Part shown: in pieces, positions 35 through 22,578 of the stretch
Layout of the letters: each line of letters opens with the position of its first letter
Numbering within the stretch: the first letter of the stretch is position 1
Origin: Halorhodospira halophila SL1
GTDB taxonomy: Bacteria; Pseudomonadota; Gammaproteobacteria; Nitrococcales; Halorhodospiraceae
Direction of reading: 5' to 3'
Assembly: GCF_000015585.1 (NCBI RefSeq)
Contig: NC_008789.1
Span: 1 to 32,000 of the forward strand
DNA length: 32,000 nt
The notes under the pieces: generated by a model
What the model saw: only the letters and a program-made list of their open reading frames with translations
What the model was told of the DNA's origin: nothing
Databases searched by the model: none
Translations under genes and position numbers: made by a program

Positions 35-664
35 TTAGAGATGGACGGCTGCGCGGCAGGCGACGAGGCAGGCCCGCCCCTGACCCGCGATGGCCGGCAG
101 TTCGTGAACGTCCAGCGCCTCGACGAGCGCCTCCGGGAGCTCCGCCAGCTCCTCTTGGATCCGCTCGCCCTTCAACGCCAGCAGGGCCCCGTCGGGGGCG
201 AGGAGCCCGCGGGTCCCCGGGATCAGTGTGGCCAACGGGGCCACGGCGCGCGCGGTGACCACAGCGAAGTCACCGTCATCCAGGGCCTCCATACGCGCCT
301 GGCGCACCTGAACGCGGTGCAGGCCCAGCTCCGTGGCGCACTGGCGAAGGAAGCGCGTTTTCTTGCCGTTGCTGTCGATCAGGGTCACCGATCGATCGGG
401 CTCAATCAGGGCCAGCACGAGCCCAGGGAAGCCGGCCCCGCTGCCCACATCGGCCAGCGCGCCGGCCGGGAGGTAACGTCGGACGACCAGACTGTCGAGC
501 AGGTGCCGGTCGATGAGCGTCTCGACGTCCCGCGCAGCAGTGAGATTGTACGCGCGATTCCAGCGCATGAGCAGGGACAGAAAGCCCTCGAGGCGCTCCA
601 GGGCCGGGGCGTCGAGTTCAATCTGGAGGTCTTCGAGCCGCGATTCCAGGTACTTACGCGGCAT
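35..664 (-). CDS. rsmG: 16S rRNA (guanine527-N7)-methyltransferase RsmG (GidB)
   Basis: The translation [17 protein letters not shown]...[12 protein letters not shown]...[14 protein letters not shown] shows the typical RsmG SAM-MTase motifs. It lies immediately downstream of mnmG and overlaps it. I prefer the ATG at 664 over the GTG at 670 used by the ORF track. The stop is TAA at 35-37. Confidence 0.9.
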
Positions 665-2555
665 CTTCACCTCCGGTCGGCGTGCGCAGCCAGCCGCGGC
701 GGCGTAGATGAATCAGCAGCAGCGAGATCGCGGCCGGGGTGACTCCGGGCAGGCGGGCCGCCTGCCCCACCGTTGCCGGGCGCATCCGGGTCAGCCGCTC
801 ACGGACCTCGGTGGACAGGCCGTCGATGGCGGCATAGTCAAGCGCTTCGGGGAGGCGGACCTGCGCGTACCGCTGGTGGCGCTGGTTCTCCAACTCCTGG
901 CGTTCCACATACCCGTCGTAGCGGGCCTCGATCTCCAGTTGCTGGACCGCGCGAACCGGGAGGTCGGCCTCCTCCAGGCCACCGATGAAGCGCACGTCAT
1001 CGTAGGAAAGTTCAGGACGGCGCAGCAGGTCGAACAGCGTCTGGTCTCGGCGCAGCGCGCCACCGAGACGGGCCTGCTGGGAGGCCGTCAGCCGGCCCGG
1101 GTGTACCCGCGTGCCGTTAAGACGCGCCCGCTCGGCGTTGAGGGCGTCGCGGTAACGGGCAAAACGCGTCCATTGATCGTCCCCGACCGAGCCCAGGCGG
1201 CGGCCGACCTCGGTCAGGCGGTCCTCGGCGTTGTCGTCGCGTAGGCGCAGCCGATGCTCAGCGCGGCTGGTGAACATGCGGTAGGGCTCGGTGACGCCTG
1301 TGGTGACCAGATCGTCAATCAAGACACCGATGTAGGCCTCCTCGCGGGTGGGGAACCAGGGATCCTCCCCCGCCGACACACGCGCCGCGTTGAGCCCGGC
1401 GATCAGACCCTGGGCGGCGGCCTCCTCATAGCCCGTGGTGCCGTTGATCTGGCCAGCCAGGTAGAGGCCAGCGATGGTGGCGCTCTCGAGCCACGGGGTG
1501 AGTCCCCGGGGATCGAGGTAGTCGTACTCGATCGCGTAGCCGGGACGCGTGATCCGGGCCGCCTCCAGGCCCGGCATACTGCGAATCAGGGCTTCCTGCA
1601 CGGTGAACGGCAAGCCGGTGGAGACTCCGTTGGGATAGAGCTCAGTGGCGTCGAGCCCCTCGGGCTCGAGGAAGACCTGGTGGTGGTCGCGGTCGGCGAA
1701 CCGGACGACCTTGTCCTCGATCGACGGGCAGTACCGGGGGCCCGACGACTGGATCGCGCCGCTGTACATCGGGGAGTGGTCCAGGGCATCGCGGATGATG
1801 CGGTGGGTCTCCGGCGTCGTCCAGCTGATCAGGCAGGCGGCCTCCGGCAGCGGCGCCTCCGGCGGGCGGAAGGGCGAGAAGAGCGGACGCGGGGTGTCGC
1901 CGTGCTGGGCATCGAGCTGCTCGACGGCCACTGTTCGCCGGTCGATGCGCGGCGGGGTGCCCGTCTTGAGACGGTGAACCGCAAGCCCAAGGTCGCGCAG
2001 CGATGCCGACAGGCGATCCGCCGCCGGGTCCCCGGCGCGGCCAGCGCTGTGCTGGACATGCCCGATGTGGATCTGGCCGGCGAGGAAGGTGCCAGCGGTC
2101 ACCACCACCGCATCGGCGTGAAGGGTCGCGCCGCTTTCTGTCCGTACGCCATAACAGCGCTGATCAGCGACCAGCAGCTCCTCGGCGGCGTCCTGGAGCA
2201 GGGCAAGGCCGGGCAAGGCGTCGAGTGCCCGGCGCGCGGCCCGGGCGTAGGTAGGGCGGTCGGCCTGGATGCGGGTGGCACGCACCGCCGGCCCCTTGCG
2301 CTGATTGAGGACCCGGGCGTGGATGGCGGATGCGTCCGCGAGCCGCCCCATCACCCCGCCTAGCGCGTCGATCTCGCGGACCAGGTGCCCCTTGCCAATG
2401 CCGCCGATCGCCGGATTGCAGGAGAGCGCGCCAATGGTCTCGAGGTTGTGCGTGATCAGGAGGGTCGAACGGCCCAGTCGGGCGGCGGCAGCCGCGGCCT
2501 CCGTGCCGGCATGCCCGCCGCCAATGACGATGACATCGAAGCGGTTGGTGTTCAT
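654..2555 (-). CDS. mnmG: tRNA uridine-5-carboxymethylaminomethyl synthesis enzyme MnmG (GidA)
   Basis: An internal ATG at 2555 gives [28 protein letters not shown]...[23 protein letters not shown], the canonical FAD-binding N-terminus of MnmG, and a 633-aa product. The 263 codons upstream of it in the 896-aa track ORF have no MnmG homology and run antisense to fabF. Confidence 0.93.
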
Positions 2556-2596
2556 GCGGGGATTTTGGGCCGCCGGGACGGAAGCCTCAAGGGGGA

Positions 2597-2612
2597 TGTT
2601 CCACGTGGAACC
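2597..2612. other. parS: parS-like ParB-binding centromere site, copy 1 (TGTTCCACGTGGAACC)
   Basis: It contains the perfect 14-bp palindrome GTTCCACGTGGAAC and matches the chromosomal parS consensus tGTTNCACGTGNAACa at 15/16. It lies 42 bp upstream of the mnmG start, in the mnmG-rsmG neighbourhood where chromosomal parS sites typically cluster. Confidence 0.7.
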
Positions 2613-2645
2613 AACTTGCGGGGCGAGGCGGCCGTCGACCGCCAC

Positions 2646-3773
2646 GTGGATGTTCCACGTGGAACTACGGTCCAGTTCGGCGGGACCATCGAAGGGTTCG
2701 ATGTGTCCCAGTACCTGCCGCGCAAAGAGGCGCGGCGGATGGATCCGTTCATCCACTACGCCTTTGGTGCCTGCGCCGAGGCCCTGGATGGGAGCGGCCT
2801 GGAGATCCGCGAGGACAACGCAGACCGGATCGGAGTGGCTATCGGTTCCGGCATCGGCGGGATCCAGGGGATCGAGACCGGGCACCAGGCGCTGATGGAA
2901 GGGGGGGCGCGCAAGGTATCCCCGTTCCTGGTGCCGAGCAGTGTGATCAACATGGCGCCCGGCAATCTGTCCATCCACTACGGGTTGCGGGGGCCCAACC
3001 TGTCGACGGTGACGGCCTGCGCAGCAGGGACCCACAACCTTGGGGTATCCGCCCGGATGATCGCCGCCGGTGACGCCGATGTCATGATCGCGGGTGGGGC
3101 GGAGAAGTGCATCACCCCGCTGGGCCTGGCGGCGTTCTCCTCCGCCCGGGCGCTGTCGACACGCAACGATGACCCGCAGGGCGCGAGTCGGCCCTGGGAC
3201 GTCGATCGCGACGGCTTTGTCCTCAGTGAAGGGGCCGCGGTCGTGGTGCTCGAATCCTACGCTCATGCGCGGAAGCGCGGGGCGACGATCCTCGCCGAGT
3301 TGGTCGGGTTCGGCACCAGTTCGGACGCTTACCACATCACTCAACCGGCGGAGAGCGGGGAGGGGGCGCAGCGCTGTATGGCGCGGGCCCTTGAAGACGC
3401 CGGCATGAATCCTTCAGACATCGACTATATCAACGCCCACGGGACGTCGACCCAGGTCGGCGATGTGGCCGAGGCGGCTGCGGTCAAGCGGCTGTTCGGT
3501 GCGGGCGCCGGCGACGTCGCCATGAGTTCCACCAAGTCGGCAACCGGACATCTGCTGGGTGCCGCGGGGGGTCTCGAGGCCGTATTCAGTGTTTTGGCCC
3601 TGCGTGACGGGATCATCCCGCCGACGTGCAACCTGGCCGAACCCGAAGCGGATTGTGCCGGGCTGGACCTGGTGCCGGGCGAGGCCCGGAAGCAGCCGCT
3701 GCGAGCGGTCCTCAGCAACTCTTTCGGATTCGGCGGGACGAACGCTTCCCTGATCTTCCGCAAGCCGAGCTGA
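2646..3773 (+). pseudogene. fabF: 5'-truncated beta-ketoacyl-ACP synthase II (FabF/KAS II) remnant, or an N-terminally shortened CDS
   Basis: Homology to FabF begins at [13 protein letters not shown]...[14 protein letters not shown] (about nt 2668), which corresponds to E. coli FabF residue ~49 (KFAGLVKDF...RKEQRKMDAFIQYG). The catalytic Cys (VTACAAG) and both His motifs (NAHGTST, TGHLLGAAG) are intact, as is the C-terminus GFGGTNASLIFRK. Roughly 47 N-terminal residues have no room to exist, because the mnmG start is at 2555. The only in-frame starts are TTG 2613, GTG 2646, GTG ~2700 and ATG 2739. Confidence 0.75.
2651..2666. other. parS: parS-like ParB-binding centromere site, copy 2 (TGTTCCACGTGGAACT)
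   Basis: This is the second exact copy of the 18-bp unit GGATGTTCCACGTGGAAC (2648-2665). The first copy is at 2594-2611, 54 bp away start to start. An overlapping partial third core CCACGTGGA sits at 2642-2650. Confidence 0.7.
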
Positions 3774-3786
3774 GAAGTGGGGGGCT

Positions 3787-4653
3787 TTGAGCCGTAAGCA
3801 ACTGGTCAACGGCCGCGCGGATACGGCCCTCGACGCCGAGGATCGCGGCCTCGCCTATGGCGATGGACTGTTCGAGACCGTAGCGGTCAGCCGCGGTCGG
3901 CTATGCCTCTGGGACTACCACATGGATCGGCTCCTAGACGGCGCGCGCCGACTCGGGCTGCCCGAGCCGCCCTTGGCCACCCTGCGGGAAGAGGCCCGTT
4001 TCCTCACCGAGAAGGTGGAGCGGGGCGTACTGAAGGTGGTCTACACCCGCGGCAGCAGTGAGGGTCGTGGCTACCTGCCGCCTGCCAGGCCAATCCCCAC
4101 GCGAATCCTGACACTGCACAATACTCCGGCGATTCCGCCGGAGCGCTGGCAGGGGGTTGATGTCCGGCTCTGTCGGACCCGCATCAGCACGCAACCCCGG
4201 CTGGCCGGCATCAAGCATCTCAATCGCCTGGAGCAGGTGATGGCCCGATCCGAATGGCGGGATGCCGCCATCGCCGAGGGCTTGATGCTCGACGCCGACG
4301 GGCTCATCGTGGAAGGCACAGCGACCAACCTCTTCGGAATCCGCAATCGGGTGCTCATGACGCCCCCTCTCACACATTCAGGCGTGGCCGGTGTGATGCG
4401 GCGCTGGGTCCTGGAGTACGCCGAGACGCTCGGGCTGCGGGTCGAGCAGCGTGGCTTCTACCCGGGCGAGGTGTCCGAGATGGACGAGCTTTTTCTGACC
4501 AACAGCCTGATCGGCCTCTGGCCCGTCCGTTCCGTGGCGGGTACGCAGATACCGGTCGGACCGGTGAGTCAGCGCTATCTCCAGGCAATCGCCGATCATG
4601 GGCTCACCCCGTTGGTTGAGGAGCCGGCGATGCGCGGCGGGGCAGGGCGTTGA
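3787..4653 (+). CDS. pabC: aminodeoxychorismate lyase (class IV PLP aminotransferase fold)
   Basis: The translation shows RGLAYGDGLFETV...YHMDRL... and class IV aminotransferase features. It holds the conserved position between fabF and mltG. The start is TTG. Confidence 0.8.
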   Translation: MSRKQLVNGRADTALDAEDRGLAYGDGLFETVAVSRGRLCLWDYHMDRLLDGARRLGLPEPPLATLREEARFLTEKVERGVLKVVYTRGSSEGRGYLPPARPIPTRILTLHNTPAIPPERWQGVDVRLCRTRISTQPRLAGIKHLNRLEQVMARSEWRDAAIAEGLMLDADGLIVEGTATNLFGIRNRVLMTPPLTHSGVAGVMRRWVLEYAETLGLRVEQRGFYPGEVSEMDELFLTNSLIGLWPVRSVAGTQIPVGPVSQRYLQAIADHGLTPLVEEPAMRGGAGR

Positions 4654-5675
4654 TCGGGCGCGTACCGCGACGACGCTGGTGGGTCGTCGCCGTGGCTCTG
4701 GTGTTTGTTGTGTCGTCGGGAGTCGGCGGATGGCTGTTCTACGAGCTCGATCACCGTCCACTGGAGGTCAGCGCCCCCCCCGAGATCCTCGAGGTCCCCC
4801 GCGGAGGGTCCTTGCACGCCATCTCCCGGGGTCTCGAGTCCCGTGGCTGGATCCCCGGATCGACGCGCCTCGCGTTGCGAATCTACGGTCGCCTCAGCGA
4901 CATCTCGGGTGAGCTCAAGGCCGGCGAGTATGTCGTCGAGCAGGGTATGAGCGTGCGTCAGCTGCTGGCGCGGATCCGTGCCGGGCGGGTCAAGCTGCAC
5001 CGCCTGACCGTCGTCGAGGGTTGGACGTTCGCGCGGCTGCGCCAGGAGCTGGGCCAACACGAGGCCGTGGAGCAGACCCTGGACGGGGTGGAAGACGAGC
5101 AGATCATGGAGGAGCTGGGGCTCGAGGCGTCTCACCCCGAGGGGATGTTTTTCCCGACCACCTACCGCTTTCCGCGTGGCGCGACCGACCGTGATCTGCT
5201 CCGGGTCGCTGCTCGGCAGATGCGCCAGGAGCTGGCGCGGGTGTGGAGCGAGCGCCACCCGGAGGTGCCCCTGGACGAGCCCTACCAGGCGCTGATCCTC
5301 GCCTCGATTATTGAGCGCGAGACCGGGCGCGATGATGAGCGCCGCAAGGTGGCGGGGGTGTTCACCCGGCGCCTGGAGCAGGGTATGCGCCTGCAGACGG
5401 ATCCCACCGTGATCTACGGTCTGGGCGATGACTACGACGGCCGCCTGCGCCGGGCTGACCTGCGACGCGATACGCCCTACAACACGTATACGCGCCACGG
5501 TTTGCCGCCGACCCCGATCGCCCTTCCCGGGCGGGCGTCGTTGGAGGCCGCCGTGGACCCGAAACCGGGTAGTGCGCTGTACTTTGTGTCACGCGGGGAT
5601 GGCAGCCACCACTTCTCGGATACGCTGGACGAGCATAATCAGGCGGTGCGACGCTACATCCTGGAGGAGAAGTGA
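4650..5675 (+). CDS. mltG: endolytic murein transglycosylase MltG (YceG family)
   Basis: It has an N-terminal TM helix (WWVVAVALVFVVSSGVGGW) and the YceG motifs LKAGEY, LASIIERET and YNTYTRHGLPPTPIALPG. The TTG start overlaps the pabC stop (TTGA). Confidence 0.88.
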   Translation: MIGRVPRRRWWVVAVALVFVVSSGVGGWLFYELDHRPLEVSAPPEILEVPRGGSLHAISRGLESRGWIPGSTRLALRIYGRLSDISGELKAGEYVVEQGMSVRQLLARIRAGRVKLHRLTVVEGWTFARLRQELGQHEAVEQTLDGVEDEQIMEELGLEASHPEGMFFPTTYRFPRGATDRDLLRVAARQMRQELARVWSERHPEVPLDEPYQALILASIIERETGRDDERRKVAGVFTRRLEQGMRLQTDPTVIYGLGDDYDGRLRRADLRRDTPYNTYTRHGLPPTPIALPGRASLEAAVDPKPGSALYFVSRGDGSHHFSDTLDEHNQAVRRYILEEK

Positions 5676-6319
5676 CCGAGCGAGGGTGTTTCATCACGGT
5701 GGAGGGGCTGGAAGGGGCTGGTAAGACCACCTGTCTACAGGCTATCGAGCAGATGCTGCTTGAGGCCGGCATCGACCGCCCCCTGTTTACCCGGGAGCCT
5801 GGCGGAACCCCGTTCGGGGAAGCGCTGCGCGGCGCGCTCTTGGATCCGCAGTACCGCGGCCTGACGGCAGAGGCCGAGGCGTTGACCGTGTTCGCGGCCC
5901 GTGCCGAACATCTGGCGCAAGTCATCCGGCCCACGCTGGATGCCGGACGCTGGGTGATCAGTGATCGCTTCACGGATGCTACCTATGCTTATCAGGGGGG
6001 TGGCCGTGGCCTTGGCGATGAACGGATTGCTGTGCTGGAGCGCTGGGTTCACGGTGGGTTCACGCCGGACCGCACGCTCCTGCTGGACGTGGACCCCACG
6101 GTGGGGCGGTCACGGGTCGCCCACCGAGGCGACGGAGAAGACCGCTTTGAGCAGGAGCGGGATCCCTTCTTCCAAGCCGCGCGCGCCGCTTACGCCCGAC
6201 GCGCCGCAGCAGATCCCGAGCGCTTCCGCTGCATCGACGCCAACCGGCCCGAGGGCGAGGTGGCGGAACAGGTACGTGCCGGAGTGGCCGATCTCTTGCC
6301 GGTGGGTGGACGACCGTGA
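5672..6319 (+). CDS. tmk: thymidylate kinase
   Basis: The translation starts FITVEGLEGAGKTT (P-loop) and contains DRFTDATYAYQG. The GTG start overlaps the mltG stop (GTGA), with a GGAGGAG RBS at 5663-5669. Confidence 0.92.
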   Translation: MTERGCFITVEGLEGAGKTTCLQAIEQMLLEAGIDRPLFTREPGGTPFGEALRGALLDPQYRGLTAEAEALTVFAARAEHLAQVIRPTLDAGRWVISDRFTDATYAYQGGGRGLGDERIAVLERWVHGGFTPDRTLLLDVDPTVGRSRVAHRGDGEDRFEQERDPFFQAARAAYARRAAADPERFRCIDANRPEGEVAEQVRAGVADLLPVGGRP

Positions 6320-7371
6320 GCGAGGCCGCCCATCTCTCGGACTGGATCACGCCCCGGGACGGGCGGGAGCAACTCCCGCCGTGGCTGCTGCCGGAGCTGG
6401 ACCGGTTGCTCACCCTCCACGATCAGGGCCGGCTCCATCACGCGCTGTTGCTGACGGGTCGCACCGGCCTTGGCAAACGGCTCCTGGCGGGCGTCCTGGC
6501 CCGGGCGCTGCTCTGTCAGGCGGACGAGGGGGGCGGGGCGCGGCCCTGCGGTCAGTGCCGGGGTTGCCATCTGACCGGCGGGGGTTCCCACCCCGATTTG
6601 CGCACGCTGAGTCCGAGTAGCCGCGGCGAGCGCGGTGAGATCGTGGTCGACAGCGTGCGTGGGCTGGTCGATTTCCTGCATCTGAGCGCGCAACGGGGGG
6701 GGAGTCGGGTGGCGGTGATCGTTCCTTGTGATCGCCTCAACCGCGCCGCCGCCAACAGCCTGCTCAAAACCCTGGAGGAGCCACCTCCGGGCGTCTTCCT
6801 GATCTTGGCCACCGGTCGGCCCGGACGGCTGCCGCCGACCGTACGAAGCCGATGCACCGTACGTGGCCTGACGCCGCCGGCCTGGGACGCAGCGCGGCGG
6901 TGGCTGGCCGAGCGCGCGGGCGGGGCCGAGGGCCGGGTCGACAAGGCGCTCGCGCTGGCCGGCGGCATGCCGCTGACTGCCGAGCAGATCCTCCATGAGC
7001 AGGGGCTGGAGGGATACGAGTCGCTGCTCCAGCAGCTGCACCGCCTCAGCGCCGGAGGAGACCCGGTCAAGGAGGCCGAGGCCTGGGAGGGGGCGCCGGA
7101 GGCACTGGCCGACGCCGTTACAGCGATCCTGGCGGATCTACTGCGTCAACGCCACGGGGCGCCGGATCGCGGACTACTGCCGTCGCCGCTGGCACAGCAG
7201 CTGGTCCGCGAAGCCTCGGTGGAGGCGCTCCACCAGGCGTTCTTGCGTATCGGCGAGCATCGGCGCGGCCTCGAGCAGCCTCTGAATGGCCGTCTGGCCG
7301 CCGAGGCGATCTTCCTCGACCTGGCCGCCGCCTTGCGGCCCGCTCGTCAATCCGCCGCCAGACAGGCGTGA
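6316..7371 (+). CDS. holB: DNA polymerase III subunit delta-prime
   Basis: Motifs are HALLLTGRTGLGKRLLA, the zinc-module-like CGQCRGCH and the SRC motif (VRSRC). The GTG start overlaps the tmk stop. It holds the conserved position after tmk. Confidence 0.88.
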   Translation: MSEAAHLSDWITPRDGREQLPPWLLPELDRLLTLHDQGRLHHALLLTGRTGLGKRLLAGVLARALLCQADEGGGARPCGQCRGCHLTGGGSHPDLRTLSPSSRGERGEIVVDSVRGLVDFLHLSAQRGGSRVAVIVPCDRLNRAAANSLLKTLEEPPPGVFLILATGRPGRLPPTVRSRCTVRGLTPPAWDAARRWLAERAGGAEGRVDKALALAGGMPLTAEQILHEQGLEGYESLLQQLHRLSAGGDPVKEAEAWEGAPEALADAVTAILADLLRQRHGAPDRGLLPSPLAQQLVREASVEALHQAFLRIGEHRRGLEQPLNGRLAAEAIFLDLAAALRPARQSAARQA

Positions 7372-8477
7372 AGCCGCCGCCAGGCTTCCTCCAGGTCCTC
7401 GGCTGTGTTGTAAAAATGTGGCGAGAAGCGGATCCCGCCGCAGCGCGAGGCACACGCCACGTCACGGGCACGCAGCGCCGCCAGGAGACGCTCCGGATCC
7501 GCTCCCGGTACGCGGAAGGTCACGATGCCGGCGTGCCGTTGCGGCTCCGACGGTGTAACCAGCTCAAAGCCGTGGCGCTGGACTCCCTCCATGGCGTGCC
7601 GGGCGTTTTCCAGGACGCGCCGCTCGACCTCGTCCAGGCCGACCTCTTCTAGGACGGCCAAGCTGGCCTCGAGGGCGTGGGAACCGAGCAGATTGGGGCT
7701 ACCCGGCTCCAGGCAGCGACCGTTGCCGGCCGGATCCCAGCCAGGGCGGTCGAATGCGCCGAGCTCGTCGGCCATGTGCCAACCGATCTGCCAGAGCCTT
7801 AACTTGTCGCGCACCCGCGGGTGGACGTACAGACCGCCAATGCCTTCCGGACCAAGCATCCACTTGTGGCCATCGGCGACGATAAAGTCGGCATCCACCG
7901 ACAGCCTCAGCGCCCCCAGGGTCTGGATGGCATCGACGCACAGCAGGATGCCGCGTTCGCGGCAGGCGGTGCTCAGGCGCTCCAGATCCATGCGCAGCCC
8001 GGTGCCGTACTGGACGCTGCTCACCGGCAACAGTCGGGTTCGCGGTGTCAGGGCGTCGATCAGGGCGTCTTCGGGCGTGGCGCCGTCACTCAGTCGGACC
8101 TGGCGAACGTGGACACCGTAGTGCTCGGCGAGCGACTGCCAGACCCAGCGATTGGAGGGAAATTCCTGGTCGTTGATGACCACCTCATCCCCGGGGTGCC
8201 ACGTGACCCCATGCGCAACCATCGACAGGCCCGCTGAGGTGTTGGGAACCAGGGCGATGTCCTCCGCTGCGGCGTCACCGACCCCCATCAGTCGGGCGAG
8301 CCGGGCACGCAGCCGGTCTTCGGCCTCAAGCCATTGGGGGTAGTCCGCGGCGCCCCGGTGCAGGCACTCATCCGCGAACCGATGGACGGCATCCCGCGTT
8401 CGCTGCGGCCAGGTGCCGACGCCAGCGTGGTTGAGGTAGACCAGGTTTGGGTCCAACGGGAACTCTGGGTGGGCCAT
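7347..8477 (-). CDS. class V PLP-dependent aminotransferase / cysteine desulfurase-like enzyme
   Basis: The translation shows VYLNHAGVGTWP, VPNTSAGL and a PLP-lysine context ADGHKWMLGPEGIGGLYV. The specific substrate cannot be assigned from sequence alone. Confidence 0.8.
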   Translation of the reverse strand: MAHPEFPLDPNLVYLNHAGVGTWPQRTRDAVHRFADECLHRGAADYPQWLEAEDRLRARLARLMGVGDAAAEDIALVPNTSAGLSMVAHGVTWHPGDEVVINDQEFPSNRWVWQSLAEHYGVHVRQVRLSDGATPEDALIDALTPRTRLLPVSSVQYGTGLRMDLERLSTACRERGILLCVDAIQTLGALRLSVDADFIVADGHKWMLGPEGIGGLYVHPRVRDKLRLWQIGWHMADELGAFDRPGWDPAGNGRCLEPGSPNLLGSHALEASLAVLEEVGLDEVERRVLENARHAMEGVQRHGFELVTPSEPQRHAGIVTFRVPGADPERLLAALRARDVACASRCGGIRFSPHFYNTAEDLEEAWRRLHACLAAD

Positions 8478-8583
8478 CGCCGTTGCCTTTGTGGTTGCAG
8501 CGGTGAACGACCGAGTATACCGAGCCGTTGGCGGGTTGTCGGCAAGCCCGCCGGCCGCAGCCGCCGTGTCGCCGGCACGCCTG

Positions 8584-8611
8584 GGGCCGTGGAAGGTATA
8601 TTATGTTAAAT
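8584..8611 (+). other. dif: dif-like XerC/XerD recombination site (GGGCCGTGGAA GGTATA TTATGTTAAAT)
   Basis: The XerD arm TTATGTTAAAT (8601-8611) matches E. coli dif 11/11. The central hexamer GGTATA matches TGTATA 5/6. The XerC arm GGGCCGTGGAA matches GGTGCGCATAA only 6/11. It is the only strongly AT-rich island in a 234-bp intergenic region of a GC-rich window. Confidence 0.6.
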
Positions 8612-17213: not shown

Positions 17214-17708
17214 ATGAAGAACCAACAGTGGATCAAGCTCCCGGCCACCGCTGCAGCGCTGGCGCTGGTATTCAGTGTCAGTGCCCAGGCTCAGCAGGAT
17301 CCGGGGATGGGTCAGCAGGATCCGGGGATGGGTCAGCAGGACCCCGGCATGGAGCAACAGGATCCAGGGATGGGGCAGCAGGACCCCGGCATGGAGCAAC
17401 AGGATCCTGGCATGGCCCAGCCCGAGCCTGATCAAGCCACGTTCAGCAGCGATCAGATCGAGCGTTTCGTGGACGCGTACCTGGACATCATCGATATCCA
17501 GGAGGAGTACACCTCGGAGATCGAGGGGACTGACGGCGCCGAAGATGCCCGTGAGCTGCAGGAGCAGGCCAACGACGAGATGGTCGCGGCTATCGAGGAC
17601 AATGGGTTGAGCGTTCCCGAGTACTCCGAGATCGCCAACGCCATGGACATGGATCCGGAGCTGCGGGACCAGGTCTCTTCGAAGATCCACGAGCGTGAAG
17701 AGGGCTGA
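17214..17708 (+). CDS. secreted DUF4168-family protein with a Met/Gln/Asp-rich heptad repeat
   Basis: The start is ATG at 17214 with an AGGAG RBS at 17201-17205. The signal peptide is MKNQQWIKLPATAAALALVFSVSAQA|QQ. Six QQDPGM(G/E/A) repeats follow. The C-terminal domain (FSSDQIERFVDAYLDI...GLSVPEYSEIANAMDMDPELR) resembles DUF4168. Confidence 0.75.
   Translation: MKNQQWIKLPATAAALALVFSVSAQAQQDPGMGQQDPGMGQQDPGMEQQDPGMGQQDPGMEQQDPGMAQPEPDQATFSSDQIERFVDAYLDIIDIQEEYTSEIEGTDGAEDARELQEQANDEMVAAIEDNGLSVPEYSEIANAMDMDPELRDQVSSKIHEREEG
17292..17417 (+). repeat. 6 x 21-bp in-frame tandem repeat (CAGCAGGATCCGGGGATGGGT-like)
   Basis: Copies 1 and 2 are identical, and copies 3 and 5 are identical. Copies 3+4 and 5+6 together form a 42-bp higher-order unit. 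All copies encode QQDPGMx. Confidence 0.95.
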
Positions 17709-17876: not shown

Positions 17877-18401
17877 ATGGTTAAGCAACACAGTTACAAC
17901 CGAGACGAACTCCTGCTGAGCGGTCACGGTCGGCTCTTCGGGCCGGGCAACCCCCAGCTACCCAGCCCGAACATGCTCATGTTCGACCGGATCACGCGCA
18001 TCAATGAAGATGGAGGTCAGTACGGCAAGGGTGAGGTCGTCGCGGAGCTCGATGTCCATCCGGAGCTCTGGTTCTTCCGTTGTCACTTTGCGGGGGATCC
18101 GGTCATGCCCGGATGCCTGGGACTGGACGCGCTCTGGCAGATGGTCGGTTTCTACCTCGGTTGGATCGGGGGCCACGGGGCCGGTCGTGCGCTGGGCTGT
18201 GGCGAGGTCAAATTCACCGGTCAGATACTCCCGGACAATCGGCTGGTTACGTACAATGTGGCGCTCAAGAGGGTGATCAACCGCCGATTGGTCATGGGGA
18301 TCGCCGATGGCAGCGTGGCCGTCGACGGTGAGACGATTTACGAAGCTACTGATCTGAAAGTCGGGCTCTTCCAGAACACCGGCGAGCTGAACGGGGCATA
18401 G
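17877..18401 (+). CDS. fabA: 3-hydroxydecanoyl-ACP dehydratase / trans-2-decenoyl-ACP isomerase
   Basis: Motifs are [15 protein letters not shown] and the active-site region [23 protein letters not shown]. The length is 174 aa. Confidence 0.93.
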
Positions 18402-18439
18402 GATCAGGCGCGGACGCCAGGAGTGACAGGAGGACTATC

Positions 18440-19657
18440 GTGCGTCGAGTGGTGATTACCGGTCTGGGCATCGTGTCGTGCATCGGCAACAGCCGCGACG
18501 AAGTCACGGCATCTTTGCGGGCCGGCAAATCCGGGATCCGATACCAGCCCGAATACGAGGAGGTCGGCCTGCGCAGCTTGGTGGCCGGGAGTTGCGATGT
18601 CGATGTGCAGGCCCTTATCCCGCGTAAGTCCCTACGCTTCATGGGCGATGCTGCGGCCTACAGCTACATTGCGATGGACCAGGCGATTGCCGATGCGGGT
18701 CTCGACTATGCGGCGATCTCCAGCCCGCGCGTGGGTCTGATTGCCGGCTCCGGCGGTGCTTCGACGGCGAACATCGTCAGCGCCACCGAGACCCTGCGCA
18801 CCCGGGGCGTTCGCAAGATCGGCCCCTACGGCGTCACGCGGACCATGGGCAGCACGGTCTCGGCCTGCCTGGCAACGCCGTTCCAGATCAAGGGCCTCAA
18901 CTACTCCATCACCTCCGCCTGCGCGACCAGCGCCCACTGTGTCGGCGCTGCCATGGAGCAGATCCAGCTGGGCAAGCAGGATGTGATCTTCGCCGGAGGC
19001 GGCGAGGAAGAGCACTGGTCTCTCACCCAGCTGTTCGATGGGATGGGCGCGTTGTCCACCAAGTACAACGATACGCCGGAGCAGGCGTCGCGCCCTTACG
19101 ATGCCAGCCGCGACGGTTTCGTGATTGCCGGCGGCGGTGGAATGGTCGTGGTCGAAGCCCTTGAGCACGCCCAGGCGCGCGGTGCCCCGATCCTCGCTGA
19201 GCTGGTCGGTTTCGGTGCGACGTCGGATGGGTACGACATGGTTGCCCCGTCCGGCGAGGGGGCCGCACGTTGCATGAGGCAAGCCCTGGAGGGAGTCGAG
19301 GGGCCCGTGGACTACATCAATACCCACGGTACCAGTACGCCGGCCGGGGATATCGCCGAACTGGAGGCGACGCGAGAGGTCTTTGGCGAGTGCATGCCGC
19401 CGATGTCCTCGACCAAGTCCCTCACCGGCCACTCGCTGGGTGCCACCGGAGTCCAGGAGGCAATCTACTCGTTGCTGATGATGGAGCACGGGTTCATCTC
19501 ACCATCGATCAATATCGAGCAACTCGACCCTGAGGCGGGAGATGTGCCCATGGTCACCGAGACGCGCGAGGGCGTCACCCTCAACACCGTGCTCACCAAC
19601 AGTTTCGGCTTCGGCGGGACGAACGCGACGCTGGCACTGCGCCGTTTCGACGGCTGA
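18440..19657 (+). CDS. fabB: beta-ketoacyl-ACP synthase I
   Basis: The translation shows [16 protein letters not shown], the catalytic Cys in [22 protein letters not shown] and GHSLGATG, and ends [11 protein letters not shown]. It lies immediately downstream of fabA. The start is GTG. Confidence 0.9.
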
Positions 19658-22357: not shown

Positions 22358-22431
22358 GGCTAGGTGGCAGAGTGGTGATGCAGCGGCCTGCAAAGCCGTG
22401 TACGTGGGTTCGATTCCCGCCCTAGCCTCCA
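22358..22431 (+). tRNA. tRNA-Cys (anticodon GCA)
   Basis: The cloverleaf was folded by hand. The acceptor stem is GGCTAGG/CCTAGCC, the anticodon stem GCGGC/GCCGT has loop CTGCAAA, and the T-arm is GTGGG-TTCGATT-CCCGC. The discriminator is T and CCA is encoded. Confidence 0.93.
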
Positions 22432-22493
22432 TACTCCCCCGCCCGTATCGGCCTTCGTGCCCCATCTCCGGTGACGAAGCCGACTCCCCACCG

Positions 22494-22578
22494 GCCCAGG
22501 TGGCGGAACTGGTAGACGCAGACGACTTAAAATCGTCAGGCTTCGGCCGTGCCGGTTCGAGTCCGGCCCTGGGCACCA
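22494..22578 (+). tRNA. tRNA-Leu (anticodon TAA)
   Basis: The acceptor stem is GCCCAGG/CCTGGGC and the anticodon stem GACGA/TCGTC has loop CTTAAAA. It has a long variable arm (AGGCTTCGGCCGT) and the T-arm GCCGG-TTCGAGT-CCGGC. CCA is encoded. Confidence 0.93.

Follow-up and report, generated by a model that had tools for sequence, protein, structure and literature searches.

The parS sites of ParABS systems of the Bacillus subtilis and Pseudomonas aeruginosa type (TGTTNCACGTGNAACA) are 16-bp palindromes that often lie upstream of mnmG, and dif sites of the Escherichia coli XerCD-FtsK type follow an 11-6-11 layout of XerC arm, center, and XerD arm. Classical misassemblies of reference sequences flip segments between long inverted repeats such as rRNA operons or insertion sequence elements. 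Here, we investigated a parS pair and a dif site in the first 32 kb (32,000 nucleotides; "the window") of the Halorhodospira halophila SL1 chromosome, whose first base coincides with, or falls just a few bases from, the first base of the finished record CP000544 (2,678,452 bp). A first-pass annotation of the window had remarked that these landmarks, one of the origin type and one of the terminus type, lie only about 6 kb apart, and had offered a recent large rearrangement, an unusual replicon architecture, an orphan or non-functional copy of one of the sites, or a chimeric contig as explanations. Both parS and dif are genuine and individually ordinary, and their proximity is due to a flip that is found in the SL1 record only. 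The junction, at 2667/2668, very probably belongs to a record-specific inversion of a whole replichore and not to the native architecture.

As the native-order reference, we used strain BN9630 (assembly GCA_016583685.1, NRRO00000000), which has an average nucleotide identity of 99.99% to SL1. Contigs of BN9630 were matched to the window by BLAST, and gene families were assigned using Pfam. The SL1 gene order was rebuilt from exact protein look-ups, on the basis that GenBank accessions are numbered along gene order. See Table 1 for the coordinates of all features.

The junction in the window and its predicted reciprocal partner

The window divides into two pieces. Positions 1–2667 are the reverse complement of BN9630 contig NRRO01000008.1, and positions 2668–32000 correspond to the 272-kb contig NRRO01000003.1, both at 100% identity with 0 mismatches or gaps. 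BN9630, DNA-identical over all 32 kb, is uninverted at both breakpoints. The truncated fabF had been taken as a sign of a junction between the two landmarks, and the contig matches locate that junction, here called J2. The left piece stops with CTA (2665–2667), the complement of the mnmE stop codon, which overlaps the outer end of parS-2 and finishes one base outside it. The right piece opens at the second base of fabF codon 47. The frame of the remaining fabF' aligns to residues 48–411 of the 412 of E. coli FabF, so about 47 N-terminal codons are gone; BN9630 and a Logan assembly both carry an intact 414-amino acid fabF. The open reading frame that spans the junction (TTG at 2616, 385 amino acids) is exactly the SL1 GenBank protein ABM60798.1; the RefSeq version has 356 amino acids (WP_244857307.1). 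A 36-mer across the junction gave 0 matches in public genome, metagenome, and viral contig collections, which evidently do not include the SL1 genome itself.

The native order of both pieces can be read from BN9630. Contig NRRO01000008.1 carries gyrB, recF, dnaN, dnaA / rpmH, rnpA, yidD, yidC, mnmE, parS, mnmG, rsmG, parA, parB, and the atp operon, and contig NRRO01000003.1 carries rpmF, plsX, fabH, fabD, fabG, acpP, an intact fabF, and pabC, continuing to dif. The same two parS sites are present in BN9630, where the sequence runs on ...ATCGGAAAATAG into mnmE. The canonical junction sequences are ...TCTGTATCGGAAAATAGTTCCACGTGGAACATCC... (A) and ...GACACGTCCAGCTATTCGGTCCAGTTCGG... (B). The synteny comparison proposed earlier was also run on other Halorhodospira genomes, and there the cluster fabD-fabG-acpP-fabF(1-414)-pabC-mltG-tmk-holB-aminotransferase-dif is uninterrupted, with a full-length fabF and the same pabC-mltG-tmk-holB order as in the window.

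Next, we followed the gene order across the rest of the SL1 record. Accessions ABM60796 to ABM63202 span 2407 numbers, which is the published SL1 protein count; therefore, the record opens at rsmG and closes at parA. ParA (ABM63202, the last of the 2407 proteins) and ParB (ABM63201) are adjacent across the record start: parA and parB directly precede window base 1 in the circular record and follow rsmG in the identical BN9630 locus. In SL1, mnmE (ABM62006) is directly followed by acpP, fabG, and onward to plsX in reversed order. This is the reciprocal junction, J1, which lies ~1211 genes, or ~1.34 Mb, from J2. The MnmE protein reports the join as well, having 469 amino acids and ending in ...CIGKE in SL1 versus 468 amino acids and ...CIGK in BN9630. 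When ...ATCGGAAAA (mnmE without its stop) is joined to the reverse complement of the missing fabF 5′ piece (GAATAGCTGG...), the result reads AAA GAA TAG, or "K E stop," matching SL1; the mnmE stop codon stayed at J2. From this, J1 is predicted near 1.345 Mb in CP000544.1 with the sequence ...TTCTGTATCGGAAAAGAATAGCTGGACGTGTCAAACTC... (longer form, GGCTTCTGTATCGGAAAAGAATAGCTGGACGTGTCAAACTCGGTAATGG). Taken together, J1 and J2 are reciprocal, as all bases of both parental sites are kept and a single C:G pair (fabF nucleotide 140) occurs at both joins. The breakpoints have no repeat or homology, and the distance of the ends from oriC and dif is at most 0.2% of the chromosome. Microhomology-mediated recombination was considered and rejected: AATAG and ACGTG occur both in A and in the reverse complement of B, but the joins fall outside those patches.

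We propose that an inversion of ~1.34 Mb would account for the record, with one cut a single base beyond parS-2, directly following the mnmE stop, and the other inside fabF codon 47. The flipped segment would start ~4 kb to one side of dnaA, stop 6 kb before dif, and so take in one complete replichore. oriC and dif would stay antipodal, and parS, mnmG-rsmG-parAB, and the atp operon would land beside dif. The event would be evolutionarily instantaneous or non-biological, because both fabF pieces and their flanks are unmutated and the genome-wide GC skew has not re-equilibrated. The rearrangement suggested by the first-pass annotation, in which part of the origin domain moved next to the terminus, is therefore what the record shows, in the form of a replichore flip. 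Its description of the landmarks as origin-type applies to parS, mnmG, and rsmG, which are displaced together with parAB and the atp operon across the record start, and does not extend to oriC, which is not displaced.

Assembly artifact or genuine inversion

Whether the flip was present in cells is a separate matter. Our fuller statement, that the record-specific replichore inversion reflects an assembly or finishing artifact or a minority of molecules, is one we hold with only a little better than even confidence. Set against a genuine clonal inversion, the odds lie modestly on the side of the artifact or minority molecule, and any other reading is very improbable.

Several observations lead us to lean this way. 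Three SRA-derived assemblies of identical DNA, from strains unconfirmed as SL1, read through canonical fabF, and one of them reads through canonical mnmE/parS/mnmG; neither J1 nor J2 was found in these three assemblies. The ends show no homology, and the 1-bp overlap common to both joins would fit an off-by-one cut-and-paste. Furthermore, a whole-replichore flip is the costliest class of inversion and should be strongly counter-selected. The earlier suggestion of a chimeric contig therefore survives in part: an assembly problem may explain the junction, as the identical DNA of BN9630 and of the SRA assemblies is uninverted. The intact 414-amino acid FabF has the UniParc identifier UPI00006B51EC, which we take to fall in the 2005–06 range and probably to come from the Joint Genome Institute (JGI) draft of SL1; if so, SL1 reads spanned an intact fabF. 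We treat this as a lead and not as a test.

Other points weigh against our reading. Repeat-free joins that are reciprocal to one base are not normally produced by assembler mis-joins. SL1 was finished by JGI from 3-, 8-, and 40-kb Sanger libraries, so clone support is expected at every base. A fabF knockout could be viable, as fabA-fabB is present in the window. BN9630 is formally another strain, which leaves room for a real inversion specific to SL1, and J1 is inferred from protein sequence and accession order, not read as DNA. Finally, contig ends close to the fabF breakpoint in two of the SRA-derived assemblies are unlikely by chance and could represent an assembly-graph branch or a coverage problem.

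These contig ends are as follows. In the low-coverage runs SRR9436781 and SRR9436782, the fabF breakpoint has contig ends 35 nt to its left and 27 nt to its right, in contigs that read through the canonical sequence (loci L003:1-36 and L126:7358-7385, equivalent to window 2633–2694). One of these contigs shows a G>A mismatch at a distance of 15 nt. The offsets of 27 and 35 nt do not equal k-1 = 30.

The strongest alternative is a genuine, very recent, clonal, non-homologous inversion in the SL1 culture that JGI sequenced, generated by break-and-rejoin with a 1-nt stagger. We consider this possible, with a probability clearly below even. It would imply that the ParB/SMC loading sites, parAB, and the atp operon sit at the terminus, that ~1200 genes are transcribed head-on to replication, that fabF is inactivated, and that one arm, up to 6 kb from dif, has reversed polarity of the FtsK-orienting polar sequences (KOPS). 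Base-conserving joins that are reciprocal to one base typify physical cut-and-rejoin and are hard to obtain from chimeric clones, and the record was finished to the JGI standard with three insert sizes. FabA-FabB is present, and fabF is perhaps dispensable as in E. coli, where its dispensability is well established. The DNA came from liquid cultures of a slow-growing phototroph, in which we would expect head-on conflicts to be cheaper, and the contig ends on either side of the fabF breakpoint (at 27 and 35 nt) could mark a graph branch in a mixed population. On the other hand, their offsets do not have the length expected from k-1. The event is also improbable a priori, with repeat-free breakpoints and both ends so close to oriC and dif. 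The product would belong to the most deleterious inversion class; engineered analogues in E. coli are reported to disturb division (PMC2585057, PMC2134941). All SRA-derived contigs examined, like DNA-identical BN9630, read through the canonical junctions. In addition, an intact FabF identical to that of SL1/BN9630 has seemingly been in databases since 2005–06. That SL1 as sequenced truly lives with a whole replichore inverted, through a repeat-free break-and-rejoin 1 bp from parS and 6 kb from dif, is in our view a tentative proposition, marginally less probable than the inversion taken by itself.

The replication origin and the parS and dif sites

A further alternative is that the arrangement is native, with unidirectional replication or an origin beside the terminus as in plasmid-like secondary chromosomes. 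In its favor are the one-strand, non-shifting GC skew published for SL1 (Arakawa 2009) and the 6 kb between parS and dif in the record. We consider it highly improbable. The 32-kb window contains no cluster of DnaA boxes (1 near-match vs 1.8 expected), whereas 6 matches vs 0.9 expected occur near dnaA, in the dnaA contig of BN9630. Upstream of dnaA there are two perfect TTATCCACA boxes spaced 20 bp apart, and the AT-rich dnaA-dnaN spacer holds three more with one mismatch each. Therefore, oriC is not near the window. By gene index, dif follows protein 8 and dnaA is protein 1207 of 2407, which leaves 1199 genes one way and 1208 the other, an antipodal layout. The DnaA-box analysis called for in the first pass thus places the origin opposite dif, and the unusual replicon architecture that the first pass had entertained is rejected, with dnaA and its boxes ~1200 genes away. 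Furthermore, the arrangement is absent from the DNA-identical strain, and every relative examined has a canonical fabF/dif side. The fabF truncation, with the missing piece preserved without mutation at the other junction, marks a derived state that is too recent to have shaped the skew.

The flipped replichore also bears on published anomalies. SL1 has been singled out, together with Pseudoalteromonas haloplanktis TAC125, for a GC skew that "does not shift its polarity" (Arakawa 2009). A later survey gave skew-shift and dif "angles" of 173% and a GC skew index of 0.091 for SL1 (Kono 2011, PMC3025954). A flipped replichore predicts both the non-shifting skew and the aberrant angles, because both leading strands then share one strand of the record.

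Local skew was treated separately. Total GC skew in 2-kb windows changes sign at ~7–9 kb, which is suggestive only. Local skew, including skew at third codon positions (GC3), was later discarded as evidence of replication orientation, as per-gene GC3 skew is about -0.1 on the coding strand for most genes, whatever their orientation. The coding-strand GC3 skew of mnmE (L001 8485-9891) is +0.32, compared with -0.18 for mnmG and -0.30 for dnaA and dnaN. The sharp skew step at the mnmE/mnmG breakpoint is due to gene composition, not replication.

We then examined the two landmarks individually. A search for TGTTCCACGTGGAACA with up to three mismatches, across the 32-kb window and with 100 shuffles as control, found the parS pair that had been annotated and nothing else: 2 sites vs 0.05 expected, with 0 of 100 shuffles giving two. 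The single mismatch of each site is at the outermost base (15/16 identity), and a perfect 14-bp palindrome, GTTCCACGTGGAAC, lies inside both. For placement counts alone, we used MnmG relatives from metagenomes, which are at most 59% identical and unfit for close synteny. parS with no more than one mismatch was present at 31 of 80 diverse metagenomic mnmG loci, mostly 50–200 bp upstream of mnmG and often paired ~40 bp apart. The rsmG locus has 100% DNA identity to NRRO01000008.1. From its sequence, the pair is an ordinary one upstream of mnmG, a genuine parS pair and predicted ParB-binding centromere, judged so because of this standard placement and pairing and because parA and parB belong to the same gene string. 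In the native order of BN9630, parS is ~4 kb from dnaA, as opposed to ~1200 genes or ~1.34 Mb in the SL1 record.

The dif site lies 5.9 kb from the parS pair. Compared with E. coli dif (GGTGCGCATAA TGTATA TTATGTTAAAT), its XerD arm matches at 11/11 positions, its center at 5/6, and its XerC arm at 6/11, and no other XerD-arm match occurs in the window. Searched with up to three mismatches, the E. coli 28-mer as a whole has no match there. The dif-like 28-mer of the first-pass annotation is nevertheless well founded, as a clade-derived pattern, CGNNNAANNTATATTATGTTAAAT, matches the window once and 0 of 100 shuffles.

For comparison, we collected loci encoding homologs of the dif-adjacent aminotransferase. 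A dif site is present at the syntenic spot, in the interval between the aminotransferase and an SDR gene, in four genomes of the Halorhodospira clade (three Halorhodospira and one Ectothiorhodospiraceae metagenome-assembled genome, or MAG). Aminotransferase protein identity in these genomes is 65–76%, and the DNA flanking dif is unalignable. All four sites keep TATA plus TTATGTTAAAT and, within the XerC arm, the CG/AA positions. In L010, a distantly related "Ca. Porisulfidus" MAG, a dif-type site lies 1.6 kb past the same gene cluster. The sites of the relatives are ATGTCGCGGAA GATATA, ACTTCGTGGAA GATATA, GGTTCGTAGAA TATATA, AGTGCGCATAA TGTATA, and ACTTCGCATAA TATATA, all followed by TTATGTTAAAT. 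The AGTGCGCATAA-type site retains the canonical XerC arm and is 27/28 identical to E. coli dif.

The XerC arm shifts stepwise within the Halorhodospira clade, from AGTGCGCATAA to GGTTCGTAGAA, then to ACTTCGTGGAA or ATGTCGCGGAA, and then to GGGCCGTGGAA. The weak XerC arm of the window is lineage-specific drift and not decay, because it belongs to this graded series among clade relatives. The stepwise change may reflect co-evolution with XerC. An integrated element of the type that exploits Xer recombination (IMEX) was also considered for a dif with such an arm and ruled out: 8584–8611 is the sole dif-like site of the window, its neighbors include no mobile-element genes, and relatives carry the site as well.

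KOPS (GGGNAGGG) in the 23 kb to the right of dif number 0 forward and 9 reverse, so that all are oriented at dif. In the 15 kb to the left there are 2 forward and 1 reverse, too few to judge the left arm. We regard 8584–8611 as a genuine dif and a predicted XerCD substrate because it is conserved at the locus across Halorhodospira and has polar KOPS. The window itself encodes none of XerC, XerD, and FtsK. A published hidden Markov model survey placed the dif of NC_008789 at 2,598,940 with the sequence GCTGCGCATAACCTCGGTTCTATAAACT (Kono 2011, PMC3025954, supplementary table). That candidate has a poor XerD arm and is unconvincing, and 8584–8611 was missed by the survey.

That the 28-mer is a chance or decayed look-alike of an XerCD substrate, or the palindromes look-alikes of ParB sites, is scarcely credible: the 6/11 XerC arm, the survey's choice of 2,598,940, and the one outer base by which each parS is off speak for it, and against it stand a dif invariant in four clade genomes amid unalignable flanks, the canonical AGTGCGCATAA arm in one relative, the 9:0 KOPS of the right arm, the poor XerD arm of the survey's candidate, the frequency of often paired parS at mnmG loci, and parA and parB in the same string. 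An orphan or non-functional copy of either site, as the first pass had allowed, is thus not what we find.

Neighboring features and comparison with known systems

Table 1. Features of the SL1 window and of the related loci used for comparison.
Feature	Location	Strand	Details
rsmG (gidB)	35..670	-	First gene of the SL1 record; Pfam GidB at the identical BN9630 locus
mnmG (gidA)	654..2555	-	Exact 633-aa product on BN9630 NRRO01000008.1; Pfam GIDA domains
parS-1	2597..2612	.	TGTTCCACGTGGAACC; 42 bp upstream of mnmG start codon; 1 mismatch to TGTTCCACGTGGAACA
parS-2	2651..2666	.	TGTTCCACGTGGAACT; 96 bp upstream of mnmG; 1 mismatch to TGTTCCACGTGGAACA
Inversion junction J2	2667..2668	.	...GTTCCACGTGGAACTA / CGGTCCAGTTCGG...; also written ...GTTCCACGTGGAACTACGGTCCAGTTCGG...
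fabF'	2668..3773	+	3′ 89% of fabF, from inside codon 47 to stop; without native start codon or promoter
pabC, mltG, tmk, holB	3787..7371	+	Pfam Aminotran_4, YceG, Thymidylate_kin, DNA_pol3_delta2; canonical continuation of the fab cluster
Class-V aminotransferase (ABM60803.1)	7347..8477	-	Pfam; flanks dif in all relatives
dif	8584..8611	+	XerC arm GGGCCGTGGAA, center GGTATA, XerD arm TTATGTTAAAT
fabA-fabB (KAS I)	17877..19657	+	Pfam FabA, ketoacyl-synt at the identical BN9630 locus
dif in relatives	L005:6217-6244, L006:39-66, L007:3693-3720, L008:9812-9839, L010:8351-8378	Minus strand of loci	
Two candidate oriC elements around dnaA	L001 4322-4543 and 5955-6122		Boxes of the AT-rich dnaA-dnaN spacer; perfect TTATCCACA pair
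SL1 accession order, record start	rsmG 60796, mnmG 60797 (by position); fabF' ABM60798, aminotransferase 60803		
SL1 accession order, around J1	dnaN 62001, dnaA 62002, yidC 62005, mnmE 62006, acpP 62007, fabG 62008, plsX 62011		
SL1 accession order, record end	atpD 63193, parB 63201, parA 63202		

The genes between the landmarks, fabF', pabC, mltG, tmk, holB, and the class-V aminotransferase gene, are as first listed and agree with Pfam. The start of holB (6226-7371) differs between gene calls, being 351 amino acids from GTG 6316 (Prodigal-type) or 380 amino acids with a ~90-nt tmk overlap (BN9630 GenBank). The fabA-fabB pair lies 9 kb beyond dif and would be a second elongating condensing enzyme should fabF be truly split. 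An imperfect 21/42-nt tandem repeat (CAGCAGGATCCCGGCATGGGG, ~6 copies, 17291–17415) lies inside a DUF4168 gene and encodes a Q-Q-D-P-G-M-G-like repeat; two of the three SRA-derived contigs end in it, at window 17363. The only Rfam/ARAGORN matches within the window are a tandem of tRNA-Cys(GCA) and tRNA-Leu(TAA) at 22358–22578.

In the MAG L010, on a 2.49-Mb contig (8351–17751), dif is still linked to fabD-fabG-acpP-fabF-pabC-mltG-tmk-holB-aminotransferase at 44% aminotransferase identity. The linkage of dif to the fab cluster, down to this distant gammaproteobacterial MAG, is an unusually stable terminus neighborhood.

As a type-strain reference, SL1 serves studies of an extreme halophile and of photoactive yellow protein, and its record feeds comparisons of GC skew, dif, parS, and origins. 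If the record is half-flipped, analyses based on coordinates, strand, or distance from the origin are wrong for one replichore. The true dif at 8584–8611, with its lineage-specific XerC arm, allows databases to be corrected. The practical value therefore lies in correcting the type-strain reference and explaining its anomalous skew, and the scientific value would be high only if the inversion is physically real. In that case it would be among the most drastic viable breaches of replichore organization known, with an isogenic uninverted sister in BN9630 and a strain available in a culture collection. The ParB/parS centromere (presumably an SMC loading site), parAB, and the atp operon would lie 3–15 kb from dif, replication would meet ~1200 genes head-on, one whole arm would have reversed FtsK-orienting polarity, and fabF would be split. 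Such a strain would be a natural experiment on how much loss of replichore organization a slow-growing bacterium tolerates, and it would hint that ParB-bound parS or the terminus zone is fragile or spatially coupled. No mention of the inversion, of Halorhodospira parS, or of SRR9436781 was found in the searchable literature.

Compared with described systems, what was found is a megabase-inversion breakpoint; such events, or errors, are known. The parS and dif sites are ordinary members of their families. The dif site shares with the E. coli type the 11-6-11 layout, an identical XerD arm, a center matching at 5/6, a position antipodal to dnaA, and KOPS pointing in. Unlike E. coli dif, its XerC arm has drifted from CGCATAA to CGTGGAA, with 6/11 matching, and a published automated prediction missed the site. 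The parS sites, at 15/16, resemble those of the B. subtilis and P. aeruginosa type in lying upstream of mnmG in mnmG-rsmG-parA-parB, and this placement and pairing are also common to many unrelated bacteria. They differ from the usual parS in that the SL1 record places the pair 6 kb from dif, with dnaA ~1.34 Mb away; dnaA is ~4 kb away in the native order.

The engineered inversions of E. coli (PMC2134941, PMC2585057) and the spontaneous one of Streptococcus pyogenes NZ131 (bioRxiv 10.1101/534933) are likewise reported as megabase-scale and as reversing the compositional and KOPS polarity of an arm relative to dif or oriC. Unlike those, the SL1 flip, whether physical or not, is intra-replichore and takes in nearly a whole arm, with oriC and dif in place and repeat-free ends. 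Reference misassemblies detected by skew share with the SL1 record a one-strand, non-switching skew and a conflict with an independent assembly of identical DNA. Unlike a classical misassembly, the SL1 joins are repeat-free and reciprocal to one base.

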